Shown here: positions 59,458 through 63,447 of the stretch, one piece after another
How positions within the stretch are numbered: the first letter of the stretch is position 1
Layout: every line of letters begins with the position of its first letter
Origin: an uncultured Bacteroidales bacterium
Lineage (GTDB): Bacteria > Bacteroidota > Bacteroidia > Bacteroidales > FEN-979
Assembly: GCA_903837605.1 (NCBI GenBank)
Contig: CAILVF010000043.1
Span: 12,016-76,015, forward strand
DNA: 64,000 bases
Direction: 5' to 3'
The notes under the pieces: generated by a model
What the model was told of the DNA's origin: nothing
The model's database searches: none
The model's input: the letters and a program-made list of their open reading frames with translations, nothing else
Program-made: the position numbers and the translations under genes

Positions 59458-60405
59458 TTAAAAAGGAGTTTCACTTCCCAGGTAACATGTTATACCCAGT
59501 GATGTAAACCGGTTTTGGATTTCAACCAGCTTCTCCCGGGGTGTCATTTCAAAGCCGGGGAGCTTATAAACGATTCCTGCGAGCTGGTATTTTTCACGCC
59601 CAAGGTGGTGAACGGGAAGTATATTCAGCTCATTCCGGCCTGTCGAAAGAATAAAACCTGCTGTTGCCCTGATATTTTCATCCGAGTCATTCAGTCCCGG
59701 CACAAGTGGCAGCCTGAACACCAGCCTGCCTTCGAACTTCCCTGCAAGCTGCCGGGCATTCTCAAGGATCAGGGAGTTTGTTGAGGATGTAAGCTCCTTA
59801 TGGGAAGCCGCGTCGATATGTTTCAGGTCAAAAAAGATCCATTCAAGCCAGGGAAGGGATGGTTCTATATTTTTCCAGGGGATGTCACCGCAGGTTTCAA
59901 CCGCAGTATGGATAAAGGCCTCATAGCACCGTTTAAGCAAAGCTGAGGCGAACTCAGGTTGTGCAAAAGGTTCTCCTCCGGTGAGGGTGATCCCGCCTTT
60001 TTCACCCCAATATTGCCTGTCGCGTTTTATCCTGTCATAAAGATCTTCTGTCGTGATATAGTAACCTCCTTTTGCCAGGGCTCCCGTCAGGCAGGCGCTT
60101 ACGCAGTCATAAGTAACGCATCTGCTGCATTTCTCCCTGTCAAACTGAAGCCGGGGGGTGTCCTTATCGCCGATCAACGTTATAGCCTTGTGTGGGCAGG
60201 CCTGCAGGCAATACAGGTCGAAAAGGCATTTTGTTTCTTTATACAGGGGCTCGGGAAATGGTCTTATCCCTTCCGGGTTTGAGCACCAGAGGCACCTGAG
60301 CGGACAGCCTTTCAGAAATATCAGTGTGCGGCAGCCGGGGCCGTCGTGTACCGAGAACCCCTGGATGTCGAAAATATATCCCCCGTTTAATTTTGACTGA
60401 TCCAT
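59458..60405 (-). CDS. hpdA: Glycyl-radical enzyme activating protein (radical SAM, HpdA-like)
   Basis: Start trimmed to MDQSKLNGGYIFDIQGFSVHDGPGCR. Radical-SAM motif CPLRCLWCSNPE. Two auxiliary Cys clusters (CLFDLYCLQACP and CSRCVTYDCVSAC). GGITLTGGEP. Confidence 0.85.
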   Translation of the reverse strand: MDQSKLNGGYIFDIQGFSVHDGPGCRTLIFLKGCPLRCLWCSNPEGIRPFPEPLYKETKCLFDLYCLQACPHKAITLIGDKDTPRLQFDREKCSRCVTYDCVSACLTGALAKGGYYITTEDLYDRIKRDRQYWGEKGGITLTGGEPFAQPEFASALLKRCYEAFIHTAVETCGDIPWKNIEPSLPWLEWIFFDLKHIDAASHKELTSSTNSLILENARQLAGKFEGRLVFRLPLVPGLNDSDENIRATAGFILSTGRNELNILPVHHLGREKYQLAGIVYKLPGFEMTPREKLVEIQNRFTSLGITCYLGSETPF

Positions 60406-60638
60406 TCGAAATCGACACATTTTGCCGCGATCATATCGGGGTAGGCCAGGGTGGCTGACATACATTTGCCCAGAAAATCTTTCTCGGCAGTGTATTTACT
60501 GCAAAACTTGCATTTTGCAATCTTTTCAGCCTTGCCGCAGAATGGATCGTCGGGGAGGATGTCCTGCTTTGAGAGTTTGCACATCCCCTTGAAAACATCA
60601 ACCGGAAGGTAAAATTTGCAGTCGGTGCAATTGTTCAT
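60387..60638 (-). CDS. hpdC: Small (gamma) subunit of 4-hydroxyphenylacetate decarboxylase, 8-Cys Fe-S protein (HpdC/CsdC-like)
   Basis: 83 aa with Cys at 4, 7, 20, 34 and 43, 46, 59, 74 (4+4). It sits between the GRE and its activase, as in hpdBCA operons. The KGMCKLSKQDILPDDPFC region resembles HpdC as I remember it. Confidence 0.7.
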   Translation of the reverse strand: MNNCTDCKFYLPVDVFKGMCKLSKQDILPDDPFCGKAEKIAKCKFCSKYTAEKDFLGKCMSATLAYPDMIAAKCVDFEWISQN

Positions 60639-60673
60639 GTCTGTTTCGGTTAAATCGTATCCTTTTTTTAATA

Positions 60674-60750
60674 GTGACTAGTGACCGGTGACTGGTGACT
60701 GGTGACTGGTGACTGGTGATCGTTCACTGTTCACTATTTACCGTTTACTA
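60674..60750. repeat. Heptamer tandem array, 11 units (GTGACTG core x4, decaying to TTCACTG / TTTACCG)
   Basis: GTGACTA GTGACCG GTGACTG x4 GTGATCG TTCACTG TTCACTA TTTACCG TTTACTA. The last unit contains the hpdB stop (60748-60750). The array fills most of the hpdB-hpdC spacer. Confidence 0.95.
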
Positions 60751-63447
60751 GAGTTCTTCGTACTCCGTTCTTGCAATGACTTCATCCTGTATCTGTTTGC
60801 CGAGTTCGACCCAGTACTGGGTAAAGCCGGCAACACGCACCAGCAGGCTCCGGAACTTATCGGGATCGGCCTGGGCCTGTTTCAGCATCCTTGAATCAAC
60901 GATGTTGAATTGCACATGGAACCCGCCTTTCCGCATATATGAGCGGATCAGCTCGAGGAATTTACGGGAGCCTTCCCGTCCTCTCACGACCGAGGGATGG
61001 ATCTTCATATTCAGCTGGGAATTCTGGGATTGCGAATGGTTCCAGCAGGCTGCCGAGTTGAACAAAGCATATGGGCCATGTTTATCGGTTCCGGGATATG
61101 CCGAAACCGACCCGTCAGAGAACGTTGTTCCCGACAAGCGCCCGTCAGGGGAAGCCAGGGTTACTGCTCCCATAGGGCCGTGGGTCGAAACACTGATCTG
61201 GCAGGCATACATGGGCTGGTCATACAGTGAACGGTAATTATGGGTCATCTCGCAGAACCAGTCCTCCCATTGTTTGAAAATGGCATCTACATACGGATCG
61301 TCATTGCCGAATTTGGGAGCATCCAGGCTCTGGCGGTGTATCTTACGGTATTCGCTGAAATGTTCGGCGGGCTTCTGGTCTACCAGTGAGTAGGAACCTG
61401 TTTCCTGGGCCGTATGATATCCGAAGTTGTCGAGAATGGCTTTGCGGTAATCTTCCAGGCTGAAATTCTTATCGTCGTAAATATTTTTTTTCAGTGAAGC
61501 CAGGGAGTTCACAAGCGTGGTGTTTCCGCAGGATTCAATGTTAAAGGTAGTATTGAACCTTGCACCCATTTGTCCGAGGTCCCTGCCCTTCTCAAGGCAG
61601 TCGGGCTTGAGCATGGAGTTAACCAGCGAAGGGCTGATCTTCCGCCAGGCGTCATGCTGGATGTTGTTTGTAAGGGTAAGTACATGCACCGCCCTGCTGA
61701 AATAATCCATAAAGCCCTGCCAGAGTTCATCATAGGTTTCCAGTTTGTAACCATGGCTGGGGAATATCCTTTCCCCCGTACGCATATCCACCCCATCGAA
61801 GATCACCGTTTCCAGCACTTTGGGAAGCGAGATGAAATGAACTCCGACGCTGGTTGCCGGGGCCGATCCGCCTGGTATCCAGTGGATCTCGCCATCGAGG
61901 TTCAGGGGCATCCAGCTCCCAGGGCTTGATTCAAGACAGCCTCCTATTGCCCAGGCACGCGCTTCTTCAAGCTGCATCCCCTCATGGCCGTAATTGTTCA
62001 GGAGAAACTCCATGGCTACCTGGTTGCTTACCCAGGCAGGGTAACCGGCACCGGCCTTGGTGCATTCTATGCCTTTCAAAAGGAATTCTTCGGGCAGTTT
62101 TTCGTCGTATAGCACCGATAAGGTAGGCTGGGGTGTTTCGCAGCTGATGCCGGTCTCGAGGATCAGCATTTCAAGTTCATTTGCCGCCGAGATACCGTCT
62201 TTTGTAAGCCCGCCGAGAGCGAGATTGTTAAAGGTATTTCCTGATAACACACCTCCTACGACACCCATGGAGGCAAAACAGTCTATCTCGGTGAATTTAA
62301 TACGCATACATTCCAATAACTCTATGCTTTTCGCACGGTCGATGATACCCCGGTCCATATCCCTTTTCCAGAAAGGAAACAAAACCTGGCCTACGCGGCC
62401 GGGGGAAAGCCCCGAGATGGCATCCTCATTAAGAACTCCAACATGGAAAGTCCAGAGCATCTGCAGAGCTTCATGGAAATTGCGGGGGGGATCCGAAGAA
62501 ATATGCTCAAGCATGCCTGCCATTTCGAGGTATTCAGCCTTCTGTTTTTCTTCCTTTTCAACAGAAGCCAGGAACCTCGCTTCTTCAGCGTAATTCCTGA
62601 TCCACGATTTGATGCCCCGGAGCATGATGATCACGGCTTTATAAAAATACAGGCGGTCCATTTCAGGATAACCTGCCACTTCGTTAATTCCTTCTTCGCA
62701 TATCCTGATGATCCCGTCAATACCGTATTGAAGGGGATAGTAATAATTCATGACCTCGCGTCCCTGGGGGAGGGTGTAGCCTGAATCGAACATACAGATG
62801 ACCGAACGCATGATAGCTTCCTTCTCCTTGTAGCCCGGCACCATTTGCTCATATTTATGGCCGATGTCATCCACCGAACGGTCCTTCCATTTCTTGGCAA
62901 CTTCCAGCATCACCGGCATCTCCTCAAGCCTTAAACCGAATTTTCCGGCAATGGAAATTACCTTGCCAACCGATTTGGTTACGTTGCCGCCTCCCTTGCC
63001 CACCGTTGTAAAGGTATCGGCGGTAAGTTTGCCCGATTCAAGGGCTTCCTTGTATAATTTGTCCTCCGAAGCCATGAAAAACGCTTCAGAAAGCCAGGGC
63101 ATAGGGTATGAACTGCGCAGGTATGAGGCCTTTCCCATAGTAAGAAGTTCACCCGGGTATATTACAGGGGTTAAATGCTCGAAGCCCGCCTTCAGGCTTT
63201 CGGCCCTCCTGATTACAGGTATCTCCCCGTCAAGTTCTTCCCAGCGGCGGGTGTACCAGTATGGGAATTCCATAGAGGTCGACGACTTGGCGCTGAAATA
63301 CAGTTCACGGGCCTGGTTTGCCCTTGGGGTCGGTTTGCGGCCTTTCTCACGGTCTTCAACCTGAGGTGAAGGCTTATTCCCGTAATAATTTATCGATTCA
63401 GCCGGGCAGTCTAAAAAATCCGCCGGATTTTCACCCGTATTGCTCAT
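60748..63447 (-). CDS. hpdB: Glycyl-radical enzyme, 4-hydroxyphenylacetate decarboxylase large subunit type
   Basis: 899 aa. Glycyl loop LLVRVAGFTQYW (Gly874). Cys loop AIGGCLESSPG (Cys504, Glu506). His537 and Glu638 are present. Followed by the 8-Cys small subunit and the activase. Confidence 0.8.
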   Translation of the reverse strand: MSNTGENPADFLDCPAESINYYGNKPSPQVEDREKGRKPTPRANQARELYFSAKSSTSMEFPYWYTRRWEELDGEIPVIRRAESLKAGFEHLTPVIYPGELLTMGKASYLRSSYPMPWLSEAFFMASEDKLYKEALESGKLTADTFTTVGKGGGNVTKSVGKVISIAGKFGLRLEEMPVMLEVAKKWKDRSVDDIGHKYEQMVPGYKEKEAIMRSVICMFDSGYTLPQGREVMNYYYPLQYGIDGIIRICEEGINEVAGYPEMDRLYFYKAVIIMLRGIKSWIRNYAEEARFLASVEKEEKQKAEYLEMAGMLEHISSDPPRNFHEALQMLWTFHVGVLNEDAISGLSPGRVGQVLFPFWKRDMDRGIIDRAKSIELLECMRIKFTEIDCFASMGVVGGVLSGNTFNNLALGGLTKDGISAANELEMLILETGISCETPQPTLSVLYDEKLPEEFLLKGIECTKAGAGYPAWVSNQVAMEFLLNNYGHEGMQLEEARAWAIGGCLESSPGSWMPLNLDGEIHWIPGGSAPATSVGVHFISLPKVLETVIFDGVDMRTGERIFPSHGYKLETYDELWQGFMDYFSRAVHVLTLTNNIQHDAWRKISPSLVNSMLKPDCLEKGRDLGQMGARFNTTFNIESCGNTTLVNSLASLKKNIYDDKNFSLEDYRKAILDNFGYHTAQETGSYSLVDQKPAEHFSEYRKIHRQSLDAPKFGNDDPYVDAIFKQWEDWFCEMTHNYRSLYDQPMYACQISVSTHGPMGAVTLASPDGRLSGTTFSDGSVSAYPGTDKHGPYALFNSAACWNHSQSQNSQLNMKIHPSVVRGREGSRKFLELIRSYMRKGGFHVQFNIVDSRMLKQAQADPDKFRSLLVRVAGFTQYWVELGKQIQDEVIARTEYEEL

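Follow-up and report, generated by a model that had tools for sequence, protein, structure and literature searches.

An intact hpdB-hpdC-hpdA system predicted to encode 4-hydroxyphenylacetate decarboxylase in an uncultured Bacteroidales bacterium

We identified an intact three-gene system, hpdB-hpdC-hpdA, on the minus strand of a 64,000-nucleotide stretch of DNA from an uncultured freshwater Bacteroidales bacterium (positions 12,016 to 76,015 of contig CAILVF010000043.1, assembly GCA_903837605.1; below, "the window" means this whole stretch, and coordinates count from its first letter). The genes, at 59458-63447, are predicted to encode a functional 4-hydroxyphenylacetate decarboxylase (HPAD), a reading to which we assign a probability of about 0.88. 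The HPAD holoenzyme converts 4-hydroxyphenylacetate (4-HPA) to p-cresol and CO2, carries a glycyl radical detectable by electron paramagnetic resonance, and is built of large and small subunits, with a heterooctamer reported. For hpdBCA, the direct observations are those on sequence features, membership of the family, synteny and purifying selection. All three open reading frames (ORFs) lie on the minus strand at the positions given in an original prediction, which was made from the sequence without database searches. As substrate, tyrosine-derived 4-HPA is probable, which the cell would make itself or import from anoxic surroundings. The system adds a member to a well-known family that is already covered by annotation pipelines: NCBI and JGI give the name HPAD to orthologues at 91-98% identity, and many relatives are labelled '4-hydroxyphenylacetate decarboxylase large subunit' or 'small subunit' there. 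This agrees with the original prediction, which saw in the locus a notable metabolic capability and no new enzyme class. No system components beyond hpdBCA were demonstrated, and the variants found are minor ones at Fe-S ligand positions.

The large subunit, HpdB, matches CsdB, the catalytic subunit of the Clostridium scatologenes HPAD (CsdB/CsdC/CsdA; PDB 2Y8N, 2YAJ), with 1044 bits (E = 0; 52% identity over 856 aa), so that a match by chance is excluded. The next solved structure of a glycyl-radical enzyme (GRE) scores 340 bits, and the arylacetate decarboxylase (AAD) structure 7e7l_A only 260 bits. HpdB passes the NCBIfam equivalog model for the HPAD large subunit (NF033715, 1448.4 bits, cut-off 1150). 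It fails its second-best NCBIfam match, the indoleacetate decarboxylase (IAD) model NF033718 (733 bits, cut-off 1100), and scores 395 bits or less on every other NCBIfam GRE model. These gaps in profile and structure scores serve as a proxy for a phylogenetic placement among the HPADs. The Pfam domains PFL-like (PF02901) and Gly_radical (PF01228) were both identified in the protein.

Counting residues directly, we find the glycyl loop RVAGFTQ at 871-877, with Gly874 as the radical site, and the Cys loop GGCLE at 502-506, with the thiyl Cys504 and Glu506 ('Glu1'). This is the 899-aa GRE with RVAGF and GGCLE loops that had been described at the outset. A constant offset of one residue from six CsdB positions, noted then by hand, also appears in a HMMER alignment to 2y8n_A, the check that had been proposed: Ser345, Cys504, Glu506, His537, Glu638 and Gly874 stand opposite CsdB Ser344, Cys503, Glu505, His536, Glu637 and Gly873, as homologous positions. 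All six diagnostic residues are invariant among 81 homologues and CsdB (82 sequences), and the pocket residues Val400, Leu401 and Phe406 are likewise invariant in this set. CsdB Ser344 and His536 we take to be further substrate contacts. Glu638, the counterpart of CsdB Glu637 ('Glu2'), is present and invariant among the homologues. This Glu is conserved in HPAD and not in IAD (PMC6181972), and phenylacetate decarboxylase (PAD) is also without it (2026 IAD structure paper). The Gly loops of the Clostridioides difficile and C. scatologenes HPADs are both RVAGFTQ (PMC13450708, a 2026 review).

The gene between hpdB and hpdA encodes a small subunit, HpdC, of a kind found in few GREs. HPAD requires a [4Fe-4S] small subunit, and IAD gene neighbourhoods are without one (PMC6181972); small subunits are confined to HPAD, BSS and MASS, and AAD is without one (PMC13450708). 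Both papers thus agree with the original prediction that a gamma subunit between the GRE and its activase is a hallmark of HPAD. HpdC, the 83-aa ORF for which a profile search had been suggested, passes the HPAD small-subunit equivalog NF033716 (59.4 bits, cut-off 50) and Pfam PF18671 (4HPAD_g_N; 34.2 bits, cut-off 25). It has exactly the eight Cys first reported (positions 4, 7, 20, 34, 43, 46, 59 and 74) and no His. Because HpdC alone matched CsdC weakly (E = 0.029 in a single-sequence search), we built a family profile from 28 members. The profile matches 2y8n_B with E = 2.2e-11 over residues 1-84. Each of the eight ligand positions has its counterpart in this alignment, in which CsdC Cys80 falls opposite HpdC Cys74. 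The eight Cys are predicted to hold two [4Fe-4S] clusters.

The third gene encodes a radical S-adenosylmethionine (SAM) activating enzyme, HpdA. Its open frame covers 59458-60465 (335 aa) and is probably over-extended at the N-terminus. An alignment of 72 activases places the family-consensus start at Met21 (MDQSKL...), with a 19-nt overlap with hpdC, and independent gene calls on a related metagenome contig (L081) arrive at this 315-aa product with an identical overlap. HpdA has the SAM motif CPLRCLWC (C54-x3-C58-x2-C61, a CX3CX2C motif) and a ferredoxin-like insert, C80-x2-D83-x2-C86-x3-C90 and C113-x2-C116-x4-C121-x3-C125, which has seven Cys and Asp83. The activase had been described as having CPLRCLWC and two auxiliary ferredoxin-like Cys motifs. 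All are present, but the first auxiliary motif has Asp in place of a Cys, and the frame is probably shorter at its start. Pfam domains Radical_SAM and Fer4 were identified. The generic GRE-activase model TIGR02494 (296.7 bits, cut-off 174) was the sole activase model passed, and the assignment of HpdA therefore rests on its adjacency to hpdBC in about 70 loci.

In a scan of species-representative genomes, relatives were encoded on 408 stretches, of which the best 80 loci (70-98% identity) were analysed. These 80 are nearly all from metagenome-assembled genomes (MAGs). Most belong to Bacteroidales, Prolixibacteraceae, Lentimicrobiaceae and Draconibacterium from lakes, sediments and peat, and a few belong to Victivallales, Ignavibacteria, Armatimonadota and Lentisphaerota; a Cloacimonadales MAG is among the protein-database matches. 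The order hpdB-hpdC-hpdA is kept in about 70 loci from several phyla, which is essentially all those with enough flanking sequence. The closest relative (L001) is the Lake Pavin MAG LacPavin_0920_WC57_MAG_45_7. Its HpdB is 98% identical and its DNA only 87-89%, so it is a congeneric but different species. Against this relative, the ratio of nonsynonymous to synonymous substitution rates (dN/dS) is 0.021 for hpdB, 0.082 for hpdC and 0.153 for hpdA, at dS of about 0.5-0.7. Such values, 0.02-0.15, indicate that hpdBCA is maintained under strong purifying selection.

Two further observations concern the relatives. A tandem hpdB paralogue that seemed to be present in locus L061 was rejected as an artefact of the spacer computation; no locus has two members of the HpdB cluster. 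In a sister clade, a multi-pass membrane protein of 237-244 aa is encoded directly upstream of hpdB (e.g., L009:9190-9903, plus strand; about 22 loci), and a protein of the same type is encoded downstream of hpdA in the distant loci L057 (14149-14883) and L071 (14044-14730). It has no Pfam or NCBIfam match. The occurrence of two arrangements beside one operon suggests a functional link, for example as a transporter of 4-HPA or p-cresol.

The chemistry, the substrate and the role of each subunit would be those of the homologous C. scatologenes and C. difficile enzymes, and the mechanism as summarised for the family (PMC6181972, PMC13450708, 2026 IAD structure paper) can be transferred as follows. 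HpdA, with one SAM-binding [4Fe-4S] cluster and a ferredoxin-like auxiliary domain, would cleave SAM reductively and abstract a hydrogen from Gly874 of HpdB, and the glycyl radical would then generate a thiyl radical on Cys504. The carboxylate of bound 4-HPA would lie next to Cys504 and Ser345, and the phenol group would form hydrogen bonds with Glu638 and His537. Kolbe-type loss of CO2 would follow once the carboxylate gives up one electron, in a step coupled to removal of the phenol proton by Glu638. Reprotonation of Cys504 by Glu506 would allow the benzylic radical to regain that hydrogen, giving p-cresol. HpdC, by analogy, would bind HpdB and be required for a soluble and active holoenzyme.

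Several observations weigh against assignment as a functional HPAD. The first is a change of Fe-S ligand in the small subunit. HPADγ has one four-Cys cluster and one cluster with three Cys and one His (PMC13450708). His3, the sole His in the 84 aligned residues of CsdC, is by elimination the His ligand, and HpdC has Cys4 at that position and thus does not have the three-Cys-one-His ligand set. Of 74 sequences, 40 have Cys and 33 have His at the first gamma ligand position, and the other seven Cys are essentially invariant; in the 120 best database clusters this position is Cys-type in 92 and His-type in 26, a count biased by use of the window sequence as query. Judged from these sequences, the all-Cys gamma subunit is a common variant inside the family and is compatible with membership. 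A second change is in HpdA, where Asp83 replaces the second canonical Cys of the first ferredoxin motif (CxxDxxC). Asp occupies this position in 47 of the 72 activases and Cys in 23. Gamma and activase variants pair as Cys/Asp in 38 loci, His/Cys in 22, His/Asp in 9 and Cys/Cys in 1, a co-occurrence that may simply follow phylogeny. Both ligand variants lie within the family and are already among annotated database entries.

Also to be set against the assignment is that HpdA fails the HPAD-activase equivalog NF033717 (315.8 bits, cut-off 420) and scores marginally higher on the IAD-activase model (323.5 bits, cut-off 425, also failed). All four activases of relatives from other parts of the environmental lineage fall below the HPAD-activase cut-off as well (290-343 bits), and they too pass the generic GRE-activase model only. 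Thus, the shortfall seems to be a property of the lineage, probably reflecting a threshold tuned to clostridia, and it is no evidence for a different partner enzyme. The close relatives are all MAGs. Among the genes of the 64-kb window we identified no obvious 4-HPA transporter, indolepyruvate:ferredoxin oxidoreductase (IOR) or phosphotransacylase/kinase pair. The membrane protein associated with hpdB in other clades is absent from the window (best match E = 0.15) and from the window's closest clade.

Table 1. Coordinates of the hpdBCA genes, candidate regulatory and repeat features, and context genes in the window.
Feature	Position	Strand	Remarks
hpdB, predicted HPAD large (catalytic) subunit	60748..63447	-	899 aa; NF033715 and CsdB alignment
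hpdC, predicted small (gamma) subunit	60387..60638	-	83 aa, 8 Cys; NF033716, PF18671, profile against 2y8n_B
hpdA, predicted radical-SAM activating enzyme	59458..60405	-	315 aa, family-consensus start; TIGR02494 and adjacency
TACTTTTG, match to Bacteroidota -7 consensus TAnnTTTG	63467..63474	-	20-27 nt upstream of hpdB ATG
hpdB-hpdC spacer	60639..60747	-	109 nt, mostly a 7-nt tandem array at about 60674-60729
Second heptamer array	63492..63526	-	Between AlgH-family gene stop codon and hpdB promoter region
Tandem arrays of the window	8538-8569, 20755-20853, 45697-45720, 48165-48236, 54577-54608, 56893-56916, 57887-58021, 60674-60729, 63492-63526		
Class I/II pyridoxal-phosphate aminotransferase	58018..59337	-	439 aa; 120 nt downstream of hpdA; context gene
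Four-subunit (delta-alpha-beta-gamma) VOR-type 2-oxoacid:ferredoxin oxidoreductase	54018..56763	-	Context genes

Transcription of hpdBCA probably starts from a promoter of the Bacteroidota type, close ahead of hpdB. The candidate, TACTTTTG, is the sole strict -7 match on the minus strand between the AlgH gene and the start of the aminotransferase gene, and about 55 nt around it are conserved in the Lake Pavin relative. Across the window as a whole the motif shows no enrichment (44 found, 43 expected), so that the match is weak evidence for a promoter, and only its position ahead of hpdB is suggestive. No strict -7 motif or terminator-like hairpin was found between hpdB and the aminotransferase gene. 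A scan for sigma-70 promoters and terminators gave counts no higher than in shuffled sequence, with a promoter model that is unsuited to Bacteroidota. An Rfam search of the window found one tRNA-Gln only, and no riboswitch or known leader ahead of hpdB.

The spacer between hpdB and hpdC contains, on the sense strand, GTGAACA twice followed by seven GTCACCA-like units. The same spacer in the Lake Pavin relative is 12 nt long and without a repeat, and other relatives have unrelated 7-8-nt arrays at this site. Probably the array is a simple-sequence repeat within the transcript that is both neutral and hypervariable. An attenuator in the spacer was considered and dropped, as the RNA fold is not significant (z = -1.38). 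The second array, upstream of hpdB, consists of the units GGTGACC, AGTGACC, AGTGGCT, GGTGACT and AGTGAAT, is inverted relative to the array of the spacer, and is present in a diverged version in the Lake Pavin relative.

Arrays of this kind are not restricted to the surroundings of hpdBCA. At least nine intergenic tandem arrays of 7-8-nt units are present in the window, all non-coding; their units include GTGACTG, GATAACTG (12 copies), CTGGATAT (9 copies), TAAATCG and AGCCATG (16 copies), and several have an ACTG or GTGAC core. Since the units of relatives at the same sites are unrelated, and the Lake Pavin relative has no array between hpdB and hpdC, we regard the arrays as hypervariable. Those on either side of the lipoprotein gene may be in mutually inverted orientation. 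We considered the arrays as a novelty and rejected this, because comparable intergenic direct repeats have been described: heptamer repeats (TAACTGA) are known in a few Bacteroidetes, cyanobacteria and Beggiatoaceae (PMC4679880). The minus-strand ORFs at 57776-57997 ('MAHASWLMPHGSCLMARASW...', 67-73 aa) are read-through of the AGCCATG array, not genes. Elsewhere, at 9355-9442, a 42-nt unit is repeated 2.1 times (91% identity) across the ends of two convergent ORFs (8583-9389 on the plus strand and 9404-10516 on the minus strand).

The system is placed in the core genome of a Bacteroidota member, as originally proposed. The window is an ordinary piece of Bacteroidota chromosome and encodes BamA, two proteins with the C-terminal domain of the type IX secretion system (T9SS), 2-oxoglutarate dehydrogenase E1 and E2, a KorAB-type oxidoreductase, DsbD and L-aspartate oxidase; the synteny is conserved, and no mobile-element genes were seen in the window. 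A YqgE/AlgH gene lies directly upstream of hpdB. Downstream of hpdBCA are genes for an aminotransferase, a lipoprotein, a four-subunit VorB-type oxidoreductase (the VorB subfamily model NF005507 is matched with 537 bits, cut-off 399) and a TIGR02757/DUF2400 protein. We read hpdBCA as sitting at the boundary of two housekeeping blocks. A few genes further downstream (52146-53093, minus strand) is a gene for an AraC-family regulator with a C-terminal GyrI-like (SbmC-like) small-molecule-binding domain; its adjacency to hpdBCA is not conserved in related loci.

This arrangement raises the question of whether hpdBCA, the aminotransferase and the VOR-type oxidoreductase form a self-contained unit that converts tyrosine via 4-hydroxyphenylpyruvate, 4-HPA-CoA and 4-HPA to p-cresol. 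Such a unit would extend the HPAD reading and not exclude it, and its analogue would be the C. scatologenes hpd cluster, in which a four-subunit VOR-type 4-hydroxyphenylpyruvate:ferredoxin oxidoreductase, HpdDEFG, is encoded beside HPAD. The oxidoreductase of the window has the same subunit architecture as HpdDEFG. The aminotransferase could possibly be a tyrosine transaminase, a weak inference; its sole close structure, 3g0t, is uncharacterised. The order hpdBCA - aminotransferase - lipoprotein - vorDBAC is kept where HpdB is at least 76% identical, and with other spacing in the more distant L057 and L071; neither a terminator-like hairpin nor a strict -7 motif interrupts the region from hpdA to the aminotransferase gene.

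Other evidence makes the unit unlikely. In locus L084, a block of aminotransferase, vorDBAC, DUF2400, peroxiredoxin and rubrerythrin genes has unrelated genes upstream and no adjoining hpdBCA, and the adjacency is therefore read as inherited synteny. Conservation is higher in the genes of the aminotransferase-vor block than in hpdA and hpdC, and the aminotransferase belongs to an extremely abundant family, which is a housekeeping pattern; in most loci at 70-74% identity the block is not nearby. The window has no HpdJ/HpdK-like, phosphotransacylase/kinase pair or ligase gene. In Bacteroides thetaiotaomicron, according to the literature, deleting a gene of the four-gene 2-oxoacid:ferredoxin oxidoreductase cluster BT0332-0329 did not lower 4-HPA, whereas deletion of BT0430 did, and a later paper attributed the formation of phenylacetate in this species to IOR. 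Slightly less likely again is the bolder proposal that hpdBCA is cotranscribed with the aminotransferase gene and works with the VOR enzyme as a self-contained route from tyrosine to p-cresol, so making uncultured Prolixibacteraceae-like bacteria major sources of p-cresol in anoxic lakes, and that paired ligand swaps (His to Cys in gamma, Cys to Asp in the activase) retune the redox control over formation or quenching of the glycyl radical.

Two observations on this region stand apart from the pathway question. In L082 (11400-14770) and L083 (11340-14770) a gene pair for a molybdopterin oxidoreductase and a 4Fe-4S protein separates the lipoprotein gene from vorD; insertions can thus occur in the block that follows hpdBCA. 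The window also has an unusual density of systems for conversion of 2-oxoacids (22772-30528, 38415-41307, 45722-48127 and 54018-56763), which comprise 2-oxoglutarate dehydrogenase E1/E2, a two-subunit KorAB-type enzyme, a fused 801-aa E1 dehydrogenase and VorDBAC.

An enzyme of the same class and mechanism could act on another para-hydroxylated arylacetate, with 3,4-dihydroxyphenylacetate and homovanillate-type compounds derived from lignin or humic material as candidates, and methylcatechol or methylguaiacol in place of p-cresol as the main product. For the clostridial HPADs, 3,4-dihydroxyphenylacetate is likewise a substrate. HpdB is only 52% identical to the characterised enzyme, CsdB, the lineage inhabits anoxic lake water, sediment and peat and not the gut, and GREs accept near derivatives of their native substrates (PMC13450708). 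We nevertheless consider a different physiological substrate improbable, because all known 4-HPA contacts of CsdB, together with Val400, Leu401 and Phe406, are identical and invariant in the family, and because HpdB passes an equivalog-level model.

That the operon no longer has a function, being a decaying or silent relic, is very improbable. The hypervariable array between hpdB and hpdC could in principle disturb expression, but the three frames are intact, dN/dS against the Lake Pavin relative is low throughout, all catalytic residues and cluster ligands are retained, and the promoter-proximal sequence is conserved. An indoleacetate (skatole-forming), phenylacetate (toluene-forming) or subunit-free arylacetate decarboxylase is effectively refuted by the sequence: IAD is the sister family and the activase models for IAD and HPAD give HpdA nearly the same score, yet the IAD score of HpdB is far under its cut-off, Glu638 is present where IAD has Leu and PAD has no Glu, a gamma subunit is encoded that IAD and AAD do not have, and the AAD structure 7e7l is matched only remotely.

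The system that is preferred here, an HPAD, can be compared with several known ones. The C. scatologenes HPAD likewise has three genes, a large subunit of nearly equal length (897 versus 899 aa), identical Gly and Cys loops, and the substrate-binding Ser, His and Glu at an offset of one; its eight small-subunit ligand positions align with those of HpdC, and its activase likewise has CX3CX2C and a ferredoxin-like insert. Differences from it are the level of large-subunit identity (about half), the change of gamma His3 to Cys, the CxxDxxC motif of an activase that is under the equivalog cut-off, the Gram-negative Bacteroidales host, the absence of HpdJ/HpdK, and the lack of a demonstrated equivalent of HpdDEFG. 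C. difficile HpdBCA has the same B-C-A order and the same Gly loop, but comes from a gut pathogen, unlike the relative of anoxic-lake MAGs studied here. The C. difficile hpd operon has been reported to be functional when moved into B. thetaiotaomicron, and an HPAD system is therefore compatible with the physiology of Bacteroidota.

HPAD is also known from Tannerella, as the original prediction stated: the T. forsythia enzyme (A0A1D3UC78), a Bacteroidota HPAD with Glu2, serves as reference HPAD in PMC6181972. It is probably more distant, as it is absent from the best 80 loci (all at least 70% identical). The MAG orthologues from uncultured Bacteroidales, Prolixibacteraceae and Lentimicrobiaceae have the same triad at 70-98% HpdB identity, and the same flanking synteny at 76% or more; the closer ones share the all-Cys gamma subunit and the CxxDxxC activase. 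They differ in their intergenic heptamer arrays and, in sister clades, in the extra 237-244-aa membrane protein beside hpdB. IAD, a sister GRE subclass, resembles HPAD in its fold and extensions, in the Cys-Glu1 dyad and in the ferredoxin-like insert of its activase (PMC6181972, 2026 IAD structure paper). It differs in having no small subunit, Leu in place of Glu2 and a conserved His514 (PMC6181972).

The finding places p-cresol-forming capacity in an uncultured anaerobic Bacteroidales clade of lakes, sediments and peat. The product, p-cresol, has toxic and bacteriostatic effects, and anaerobic degraders in turn use it as a substrate. To our knowledge, all that is known of HPAD biochemistry comes from clostridia. 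For enzymology, the lineage is a source of natural variation at two Fe-S ligand positions, one in the small subunit and one in the activase, whose roles are openly called enigmatic; for clusters of the HpdC type this is so even in the clostridial enzyme (PMC13450708). The identity of the enzyme is in itself a matter of routine annotation. With about 400 stretches encoding relatives, and nearly all of the best 80 in MAGs, the environmental reservoir of HPAD is suggested to be larger than the gut-centred literature implies. The main value of the finding would be ecological, in pointing to a large environmental reservoir of p-cresol-forming capacity.

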